From Escherichia phage vB-Eco-KMB26, in the sequence record OR539218.1: a DNA stretch of 64,000 nt; one strand, given 5' to 3'. Position 1 is the stretch's first letter; each line of letters begins with the position of its first letter. The position numbers and the translations under genes were made by a program. The notes beneath the pieces are model-generated. The model was not told the origin of the DNA. It ran no database searches and saw only the letters and a program-made list of their open reading frames with translations. This document shows positions 5,308 to 6,135 of the stretch, one piece after another.

Positions 5308-5383
5308 TGGTCGAGGCAGTAGGGATCGAACCTACGACCCAGGACTTAGAAGGTCCTTGCTCTTCCTTCTGAGCTATGCCTCG
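5308..5383 (-). tRNA. tRNA-Arg (anticodon UCU)
   Basis: 76-nt cloverleaf CGAGGCA..AGGAC-CTTCTAA-GTCCT..GTAGG-TTCGATC-CCTAC-TGCCTCG-A-CCA; encoded CCA. Confidence 0.85.
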
Positions 5384-5387
5384 TATT

Positions 5388-5462
5388 TGGCGGACGTGAT
5401 AGGATTCGAACCTATAACCAATCGCTTAACAGGCGATCGCTCTGCCATTGAGCTACACATCC
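5388..5462 (-). tRNA. tRNA-Asn (anticodon GUU)
   Basis: 75-nt cloverleaf GGATGTG..GCTC/GAGC D-stem, ATCGC-CTGTTAA-GCGAT anticodon arm, ATAGG-TTCGAAT-CCTAT T-arm, CCA encoded. Confidence 0.85.
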
Positions 5463-5466
5463 AAAT

Positions 5467-5553
5467 TGGTGGGGAGTGGTGGAGTCGAACCACCCGAGTC
5501 GCAATGACAATGAATTTACAGTCCACACCGCTACCTCTACGGGATAACTCCCC
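5467..5553 (-). tRNA. Type II tRNA with long variable arm, probably tRNA-Tyr (anticodon GUA)
   Basis: 87 nt: acceptor GGGGAGT/ACTCCCC, T-arm GGTGG-TTCGACT-CCACC, CCA encoded; best anticodon arm GTGGA-CTGTAAA-TTCAT (loop as in bacterial tRNA-Tyr) but D-arm is non-canonical. Confidence 0.55.
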
Positions 5554-5562
5554 AAATTAATT

Positions 5563-5637
5563 TGGTGGCCCTGGGTGGAATTGAACCACCATCTGGCGAT
5601 TATGAGTCGCTTGCTTGAACCTTCCAGCTACAGGGCC
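5563..5637 (-). tRNA. tRNA with CAU anticodon (Ile2 by T4 synteny, Met not excluded)
   Basis: 75 nt: GGCCCTG acceptor, anticodon loop CTCATAA, T-arm GGTGG-TTCAATT-CCACC, CCA encoded. Confidence 0.75.
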
Positions 5638-5638
5638 T

Positions 5639-5714
5639 TGGTGCTGATTGACGGAATCGAACCGCCGACCTTCTCATTACAAGTGAGTTGCTCTACCTAC
5701 TGAGCTAAATCAGC
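5639..5714 (-). tRNA. tRNA-Thr (anticodon UGU)
   Basis: 76 nt: GCTGATT-TA-GCTC..GAGC, ACTCA-CTTGTAA-TGAGA, GGCGG-TTCGATT-CCGTC, AATCAGC-A-CCA. Confidence 0.88.
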
Positions 5715-5719
5715 AAAAC

Positions 5720-5809
5720 TGGCGGAGGCGATAGGATTTGAACCTATGAGTCGCCGGAGCGACTGCCGGTTTTCAAGACCGGTGCATTAAACCACTCTGC
5801 CACGCCTCC
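5720..5809 (-). tRNA. tRNA-Ser (anticodon UGA), type II
   Basis: 90 nt: GGAGGCG acceptor, CCGGT-CTTGAAA-ACCGG anticodon arm, long variable arm, ATAGG-TTCAAAT-CCTAT, CCA encoded; 2-nt spacer to tRNA-Pro. Confidence 0.88.
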
Positions 5810-5811
5810 AG

Positions 5812-5885
5812 TCTCCGTGGCAGGATTTGAACCTACGACATTCTGCTCCCAAAGCAGACGCTCTACCAAACTGAGCTACACGGAG
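5812..5885 (-). tRNA. tRNA-Pro (anticodon UGG)
   Basis: 74 nt: CTCCGTG-TA-GCTC..GAGC, TCTGC-TTTGGGA-GCAGA, GTAGG-TTCAAAT-CCTGC, CACGGAG-A; CCA not encoded. Confidence 0.88.
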
Positions 5886-5895
5886 TAAATTAAAT

Positions 5896-5969
5896 TGGAG
5901 CGGATAATGAGAATCGAACTCACATCATCAGATTGGAAGTCTGAGGTAATACCATTATACGATATCCGC
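5896..5969 (-). tRNA. tRNA-Gly (anticodon UCC)
   Basis: 74 nt: GCGGATA acceptor, TCAGA-CTTCCAA-TCTGA, GTGAG-TTCGATT-CTCAT, TATCCGC-T-CCA. Confidence 0.88.
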
Positions 5970-5974
5970 AAATT

Positions 5975-6061
5975 TGGTGCGAGAAGTGGGACTCGAACCC
6001 ACAAGGAAATCATTCCGCAGCATTTTAAGTGCTGTGCCTTTACCAATTTGGCCATTCTCGC
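5975..6061 (-). tRNA. tRNA-Leu (anticodon UAA), type II
   Basis: 87 nt: GCGAGAA acceptor, CAGCA-CTTAAAA-TGCTG, long variable arm, GTGGG-TTCGAGT-CCCAC, CCA encoded. Confidence 0.88.
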
Positions 6062-6062
6062 G

Positions 6063-6135
6063 CTGGGAATAAAGGACTCGAACCTTTGCATCCTGGAATC
6101 AAAATCCAGTGCCTTACCAACTTGGCTAATTCCCA
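6063..6135 (-). tRNA. tRNA-Gln (anticodon UUG)
   Basis: 73 nt: TGGGAAT acceptor, CTGGA-TTTTGAT-TCCAG, T-loop GGTTCGAGTCC; 1-nt spacer to tRNA-Leu. Confidence 0.88.

Follow-up and report, generated by a model that had tools for sequence, protein, structure and literature searches.

The transfer RNA (tRNA) region of phage T4 comprises eight tRNA genes followed by the stable RNA genes rnaD and rnaC, and a gene for a GIY-YIG homing endonuclease, segB, is located between tRNA-Ile and tRNA-Arg. The corresponding regions of the phages T2L, RB1 and RB3 have been sequenced; they are without segB and carry tRNA-Met(CAU) and the tRNAs for Tyr, Asn and Arg (Brok-Volchanskaya et al. 2008, PMC2330249). The 27-bp site that SegB prefers in T2L was mapped inside tRNA-Asn, and when T4 was crossed with T2L, segB was found in 99.6% of the progeny and the T2L Met-Tyr-Asn-Arg segment of about 1250 bp was lost (PMC2330249). 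Here, we analysed the tRNA array at positions 5308–6135 of a 64,000-nucleotide stretch of Escherichia phage vB-Eco-KMB26 (OR539218.1), the whole of which we refer to as the window. A preliminary description, made from the sequence alone, had read this array as ten tRNA genes on the reverse strand, a T4-like set into which Asn and a Tyr-like gene were inserted. We conclude, with a probability of about 0.9, that the array is a segB-less (T2L/RB14-type) Tequatrovirus tRNA cluster consisting of ten tRNAs, rnaD, rnaC and a terminator, with proposed roles in both codon supply and counter-defence, and that T4 carries the state in which segB has replaced part of such a cluster.

Applied to the whole window, ARAGORN predicted exactly ten tRNA genes, all on the minus strand within 5308–6135, and none elsewhere in the 64 kb. 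Number, strand and coordinates are exactly those of the preliminary description. Read along the minus strand, the order is Gln-UUG, Leu-UAA, Gly-UCC, Pro-UGG, Ser-UGA, Thr-UGU, CAU, Tyr-GUA, Asn-GUU and Arg-UCU, with spacers of 0–10 nt between the genes; order and anticodons had been given identically, including those of Asn-GUU and Tyr-GUA. The Rfam model RF00005, run at both E-value and gathering thresholds, called nine of the ten genes with 60–74 bits (gathering score 29). The exception was tRNA-Tyr, which had been singled out beforehand as the least certain call. In the ARAGORN structures all ten genes form a bacterial-type cloverleaf with a 7-bp acceptor stem, U33 in the anticodon loop and the T-loop GTTCRANYC. 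Ten adjacent high-scoring tRNAs within 828 bp cannot be a product of chance. The members of the array are:

6062–6135, minus strand: tRNA-Gln (UUG); ARAGORN, Rfam 67.4 bits; CCA not encoded; 89.2% identity to T4
5975–6061, minus strand: tRNA-Leu (UAA); ARAGORN and Rfam; type II; 98.9% identity to T4
5896–5969, minus strand: tRNA-Gly (UCC); ARAGORN and Rfam; 100% identity to T4, T2 and T6
5811–5885, minus strand: tRNA-Pro (UGG); ARAGORN and Rfam; CCA not encoded; 85.3% identity to T4
5720–5809, minus strand: tRNA-Ser (UGA); ARAGORN and Rfam; type II; 95.6% identity to T4; CCA encoded
5639–5714, minus strand: tRNA-Thr (UGU); ARAGORN and Rfam; 96.1% identity to T4
5563–5637, minus strand: CAU-anticodon tRNA, most likely tRNA-Ile2; ARAGORN and Rfam; T2-type allele
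5467–5553, minus strand: tRNA-Tyr (GUA); ARAGORN and covariation; 87 nt, type II; A73, CCA encoded
5388–5462, minus strand: tRNA-Asn (GUU); ARAGORN, Rfam 74.1 bits; G73, CCA encoded
5308–5383, minus strand: tRNA-Arg (UCU); ARAGORN and Rfam; T2-type allele

The T4 record holds eight tRNAs in the same order, with Tyr and Asn missing, just as the preliminary description had stated. BLAST comparison with T4 gave 94.7% identity from upstream of the array down to window position 5626, which lies 11 nt into the CAU gene; homology is lost there and returns at 5361, inside the Arg gene. Because homology stops and resumes at these points, the array differs from T4 by the replacement of a cassette and not by a simple insertion of two genes. 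The CAU gene shows 100% identity to its T2 counterpart and 98.7% to that of the Vequintavirus SophiaRose, but only 61% to T4 tRNA-Ile; for the Arg gene, the values are 100% (T2) and 50% (T4). The Asn gene, too, is 100% identical to T2 (AP018813), and the Tyr gene matches T2 in 86 of 87 positions (98.9%) and T6 in all 87. The earlier statement that the first seven genes and Arg match T4 therefore holds for the anticodon set and its order, but not for the sequences of CAU and Arg.

By BLAST against T4, segB DNA was absent from the CAU-Arg interval of the window, and a Pfam scan of the eight neighbouring small open reading frames (ORFs) yielded nothing above threshold and no homing endonuclease adjoining the array. 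With no ORF of at least 100 amino acids in 5308–6135, with Tyr and Asn present and with T2-type alleles of CAU and Arg, the locus has the composition of the segB-less T2L type. The T arm of the window tRNA-Asn, GGTTCGAATCC, fits the published SegB core GGTTCRANTCC, a comparison made at the level of the core only (PMC2330249). T4 is likely to be the derived, segB-invaded state, and it would be without Tyr and Asn because the segB cassette, bringing its own Ile and Arg alleles, replaced the CAU-Tyr-Asn-Arg segment. The preliminary description thus placed Tyr and Asn correctly between Ile and Arg, but by calling them inserted it probably reversed the direction of the change, since T4 has segB at this spot and SegB homing overwrites the Tyr-Asn segment.

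We then compared the array with sequenced relatives. The 1.7 kb around it match Tequatrovirus genomes, for example vB_EcoM-fFiEco06, EC101 and Yersinia phage PYps14T, with 99.8% identity, and this 1.7-kb region is covered to at least 80% in one piece by 487 phage records. Phage fFiEco06 and Shigella phage JK08 have the same ten tRNAs annotated in the same order, all ten sequences being identical to those of the window, and phage Kha5h carries the same ten with rnaC annotated downstream. Two-piece BLAST matches, as obtained for JK08, suggested an insertion of about 500 bp; it was rejected, as the annotated features lie the same distances apart in JK08 and in the window, with no insertion within the array. 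The Tyr-Asn segment was covered to at least 80% in 434 phage records, the T4 segB cassette, at the same coverage, in 131. Among sequenced relatives the Tyr-Asn layout is found about three times as often as that with segB, and T4 represents the minority state. The ten-tRNA array is an already known, ordinary annotated layout in several hundred of these relatives.

The Tyr gene had been described as type II with a non-canonical D-arm, and ARAGORN as well as covariation bore this out. ARAGORN called the gene, and the public fFiEco06 record, identical over the Tyr gene, gives a tRNAscan-SE 2.0 score of 51.2. Sequence and ARAGORN drawing display the features of a bacterial type II tRNA-Tyr, namely the GUA anticodon, a long variable arm, A73 and G1-C72. 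We aligned 11 distinct homologues (the window, T2, Kha5h, a Vequintavirus, a Felixounavirus, a T5-like phage, Karamvirus CC31, three Klebsiella phages and an E. coli phage-plasmid). Across this alignment, 13 pairs of the cloverleaf had changed on both sides, and none of 500 shuffles reached the observed values, while sliding the helix partners by 1–3 columns as a control gave about 50% pairing. The variable-arm helix paired in 97% of the cells. The canonical 4-bp D stem paired in 63.6%, the pair 12-23 never formed, and the canonical D arm (10-25, 11-24, 12-23 and A14) was not found. A 3-bp CCG/CGG D stem with its 5' strand shifted by two nucleotides, in contrast, paired in 100% of the cells and showed one compensatory change from C-G to U-A, in Klebsiella phage SEL21. 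On the basis of this pairing, the canonical stem was rejected in favour of the shifted one. The odd D-arm is common to the family of phage tRNA-Tyr, those of T6 and of T5/SP15 with experimentally shown activity among them, and its conservation across the phage-borne lineage indicates a trait of that lineage and not decay. The window tRNA-Tyr gene is genuine; judging from the identical T6 gene and the related T5/SP15 genes, its product is probably charged with tyrosine and used in translation.

The distribution of this lineage bears on its origin. Using blastn, we searched 5426 E. coli chromosomes and obtained no match, even at E<=10, but found a 92% match on plasmids of 72–112 kb in 269 E. coli genomes. 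Because the E. coli matches lie only on plasmids and none is chromosomal, we rejected a recent capture of Tyr from the host. One such plasmid, pEC881_2 (NZ_CP019027), has an Asn-Tyr-Thr-Ser tRNA cluster (3921–4747 of the locus) beside DNA ligase and integrase genes and looks like a phage-plasmid. The Tyr gene is also 96.6% identical to that of SophiaRose, an unrelated rV5-like myovirus (Vequintavirus; 1206–1851 of the locus), and, taken together with the CAU gene (98.7%), this similarity points to a recent exchange of single tRNA genes across phage families. The SophiaRose cluster further contains a gene of about 100 nt annotated as tRNA-Stop(tta) (1596–1695 of the locus), for which ARAGORN reports a four-base anticodon and no assignment; this may be a suppressor-like or aberrant tRNA. 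Overall, the Tyr lineage with the shifted D stem is spread over at least five groups of phages as well as phage-plasmids, often beside an Asn gene. In Karamvirus CC31 (1378–1462 of the locus) and Klebsiella phage Roth16 (1178–1262), tRNA-Asn(GUU) is 85 nt long and has a long extra arm, which is unusual, tRNA-Asn being normally type I.

ARAGORN and older annotations call the CAU gene Met, whereas the preliminary description had read it as Ile, a reading that our comparisons support. The best E. coli matches of the gene, in 5424 of the 5426 genomes, lie under features annotated as tRNA-Ile, and with the prophage tRNA-Ile it shares an identical anticodon arm, GCGACTCATAATCGC. According to ARAGORN, the acceptor stem GGCCCTG/CAGGGCC carries C4-G69 and C5-G68, two pairs that are reportedly determinants for TilS (Ikeuchi et al. 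2005). The gene displays the features of an ileX/ileY-type tRNA-Ile2 and not those of elongator or initiator tRNA-Met; the C1xA72 initiator mismatch, for instance, is missing. Most likely, it is a tRNA-Ile2 that would read AUA after lysidine modification, as in T4, and this assignment is better supported than Met.

Downstream of the Arg gene, three further elements complete the cluster:

5187–5306, minus strand: homologue of T4 rnaD (stable RNA species 2); 101 of 121 positions identical to T4
5042–5180, minus strand: homologue of T4 rnaC (stable RNA species 1); 137 of 139 positions identical to T4
4968–4991, minus strand: intrinsic terminator-like hairpin; 10 pairs, 7 of them G-C, then TTTTT; conserved in T4

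The hairpin is predicted to close the tRNA/stable-RNA unit. A search of the rnaC and rnaD stretch against Rfam returned no family. In the fFiEco06 record (2860–3170 of the locus), two coding sequences for a 'hypothetical protein', FE6_136 and FE6_135, overlie the stretch aligned with rnaD and rnaC (window 5042–5306); these are probably spurious protein calls.

Within the array, an encoded 3' CCA is absent only from Gln and Pro, and the tRNA-Ser of the window has a CCA that its T4 counterpart (3618–3706 of the T4 locus) lacks. Gln and Pro differ from the alleles of T4, T2 and T6 mainly by fully compensated stem swaps. The Gln anticodon stem is CTGGA/TCCAG versus TAGCA/TGCTA in these alleles, with positions 32 and 38 changed as well; the Pro anticodon stem is TCTGC/GCAGA versus CCTGA/TCAGG, and the T-stem changes of Pro are compensated relative to T4. 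As far as the alignments indicate, these differences represent within-gene mosaicism, concentrated in the anticodon arms.

Codon supply was examined in 57 ORFs of the window (18,674 codons). Per 1000 codons, we counted 32.4 UUA, 25.1 GGA, 24.9 CAA, 21.8 UCA, 20.8 ACA, 16.9 CCA, 15.4 AUA and 11.4 AGA; compared with the K-12 table, the A-ending codons of the eight T4-type tRNAs are 1.6–5 times as frequent in the phage as in the host. Asn codons amount to 58.5 per 1000 (AAU 42.9) and Tyr codons to 41.8 (UAU 32.8), so that AAY and UAY reach about 1.5 times, and AAU and UAU roughly twice, the host values of that table. A role in codon supply is plausible for all ten tRNA genes. Unlike the other eight tRNAs, those for Tyr and Asn do not belong to the rare-codon type, because E. 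coli has several Tyr and Asn tRNA genes and the GUN anticodon reads both codons.

Experiments with related phages suggest a further role. The PtuAB nuclease of Septu cuts within the variable arm of tRNA-Tyr (Chihara et al. 2026, PMC13096335). Overexpression of T6 tRNA-Tyr restores the plating of T6 under Septu, T6 tRNA-Tyr is detectable as RNA, and T6 is sensitised to Septu when its tRNA region is deleted; T4, which is without tRNA-Tyr, cannot escape Septu, and T2 is resistant (PMC13096335). The tRNA-Tyr of SP15 and of T5 rescue from retron-Eco7 (Azam et al. 2024, PMC11555353). For this rescue, the phage tRNA-Tyr has to be functional in translation and present at high dosage; it depends on an intact anticodon and intact stems in the case of SP15, and on a strong promoter in the case of T5 and other tRNA-Tyr genes (PMC11555353). 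Through the identical T6 gene, a counter-defence role of the window tRNA-Tyr has direct experimental support. SegB-driven in-cis amplification of Tyr is not open to the window phage, because there is no segB at the locus.

For tRNA-Asn, a defence role may be proposed by analogy with the T5 tRNA-Asn, which contributes to rescue from PARIS (PMC12409363). Aligned with E. coli asnT (U-A-A-U-C-C), the window Asn reads U36-A-A-G39-C40-G41, and the differences at positions 39 and 41 flank the AriB cut; at positions 39–41, the window Thr reads U-G-A versus U-C-A in E. coli thrU. Without a tRNA-Lys, the phage would not be PARIS-proof on its own. We tentatively consider, and at present rather doubt, that the Tyr-Asn pair and Thr-UGU constitute a portable counter-defence tRNA module, with Tyr directed against PtuAB and with Asn and Thr as AriB-resistant replacements, instead of an adaptation to codon usage. 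In such a module, G39 and G41 of Asn and G40 of Thr would alter the AriB (PARIS) site U36-A-A-U39-C40/N41 and thereby yield nuclease-resistant replacements, and SegB homing from T4-type phages would act as a selfish element that strips the anti-defence module from competitors.

Taken together, we propose for the segB-less cluster that, by homology with T4, it would be transcribed as a multi-tRNA precursor and processed by host enzymes, with RNase P and 3' exonucleases trimming the ends and the CCA-adding enzyme completing Gln and Pro. Eight of the tRNAs (Gln, Leu, Gly, Pro, Ser, Thr, Ile2 and Arg) would read the A-ending codons that are enriched in phage genes, while Tyr-GUA and Asn-GUU would raise the supply for the UAY and AAY codons of an AT-rich phage. 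In addition, tRNA-Tyr would refill the tyrosine tRNA pool when PtuAB-type nucleases (Septu, retron-Eco7) cleave tRNA-Tyr.

Several points weigh against this account. Expression and processing in the window phage, as well as the weight of codon supply relative to counter-defence, are what we infer. The host codon values are those of the standard K-12 table. In a scan of 4700–6700, the sequence directly upstream of the array showed no sigma-70 consensus promoter, the three weak sites obtained being at chance level; for T4-type early and middle promoters, such an absence is expected. In Rfam, the Tyr gene stayed below threshold, with nothing but a sub-threshold match to tRNA-Sec (30.9 bits versus 47), a miss that we attribute to the shifted D stem combined with the long variable arm and not to the absence of a gene. 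Furthermore, the resistance of T2 to Septu was not ascribed to its tRNA-Tyr, and the T6 tRNA-Tyr, described as relatively unstable, is itself cut by Septu (PMC13096335). Since one genomic copy gave T6 only intermediate protection against Septu, any benefit of Tyr appears to be dosage-dependent.

Alternatively, Tyr and Asn might be purely codon-supply genes of a UAU- and AAU-heavy, AT-rich phage, with no part in counter-defence. The codon frequencies reported above (58.5 Asn and 41.8 Tyr codons per 1000, with AAU and UAU at about twice the E. coli values) favour this, as does the fact that codon supply is the classical explanation of the T4 tRNAs. Yet several Asn and Tyr tRNA genes already exist in E. 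coli, each GUN anticodon covers both codons of its box, T4, which has neither gene, grows well, and the identical T6 tRNA-Tyr relieves Septu, to which deletion of the T6 tRNA region sensitises (PMC13096335); we therefore regard an exclusive supply role as conceivable but unlikely. Far less probable is that the Tyr-like gene is a decayed, non-functional pseudogene. The Rfam result, the incomplete pairing of the canonical D stem (63.6%, with 12-23 never formed) and the C.C mismatch that ARAGORN draws in this stem would fit such a reading, but it is largely refuted by the conservation of the same D-arm sequence in T-even, Vequintavirus, Felixounavirus, T5-like and Klebsiella phages and in phage-plasmids, by the complete pairing and compensatory change of the shifted stem, by the covariation of all other helices (13 double-change pairs) and by the presence of the TyrRS identity features (GUA, A73, long variable arm). 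Moreover, the identical T6 gene yields detectable RNA and rescues infection, and the related tRNA-Tyr of the T5-group phage SP15 loses rescue when its anticodon or a stem is mutated (PMC11555353).

It is likewise improbable, though less so than decay, that Tyr and Asn were recently inserted into an eight-gene array of which T4 preserves the ancestral form. Horizontal movement does happen, as the identities of Tyr (96.6%) and CAU (98.7%) to the SophiaRose genes illustrate. But a mobile homing endonuclease gene occupies exactly the same position in T4, the change from T2L-type to T4-type has been seen experimentally with 99.6% inheritance of segB (PMC2330249), the difference is a replaced cassette with divergent CAU and Arg alleles and not a clean insertion, and the Tyr-Asn layout outnumbers the segB layout about threefold. 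We thus retain the segB-less Tequatrovirus cluster as the best explanation. With respect to the preliminary description, it brings refinements only: the derived position of T4, the T2-type alleles of CAU and Arg, and the recognition of the Tyr D-arm as a conserved family trait.

The difference between this array and that of T4 was already explained in 2008, and its value as a discovery is small. The array does mark the phage as a segB-sensitive recipient in mixed infections and as a carrier of a tRNA-Tyr known to blunt defences of the Septu and retron-Eco7 type. What novelty remains is the possible protection by the Asn gene and the Thr allele against PARIS-type nucleases.

Compared with known systems, the array shares with T4 its genomic position downstream of trna.2-4 and the internal-protein genes, the order of the common anticodons, 96–100% identity of Gly, Leu, Thr and Ser, 98.6% identity of rnaC and the same terminator. 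It differs in that T4 has segB in place of Tyr and Asn, other Ile(CAU) and Arg alleles and a Ser gene without encoded CCA, and in the compensated stem changes of Gln and Pro. With the segB-less regions of T2L, RB1 and RB3, it has the CAU, Tyr, Asn and Arg genes in common (100%, 98.9%, 100% and 100% identical to T2), with rnaD and rnaC coming next. However, T2 has nine tRNAs, with an ORF between Ser and CAU and Thr absent, and a second ORF after Arg. The first of these ORFs (133 amino acids; T2 array at 3003–4112 of the locus in AP018813), located where Thr would be expected, is mislabelled 'tail sheath monomer'. T6 has the identical tRNA-Tyr gene (87 of 87 positions), but combines a T4-type Ile allele with Tyr and then directly segB, in place of Asn, and is without Pro and Ser; its segB is mislabelled 'serine recombinase' in the record. 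The tRNA-Tyr of T5 and SP15 belong to the same sequence family (the window gene is 78% identical to that of T5-like Spc35) and share their D-arm motif and the variable arm GUCAUUGCGAC with the window gene, whereas these phages represent another family, their gene lies within a much larger tRNA region and its rescue activity needs a strong dedicated promoter. RB14 and fFiEco06, finally, carry the uninterrupted ten-gene version as the window does, and nothing sets the window apart from that group.

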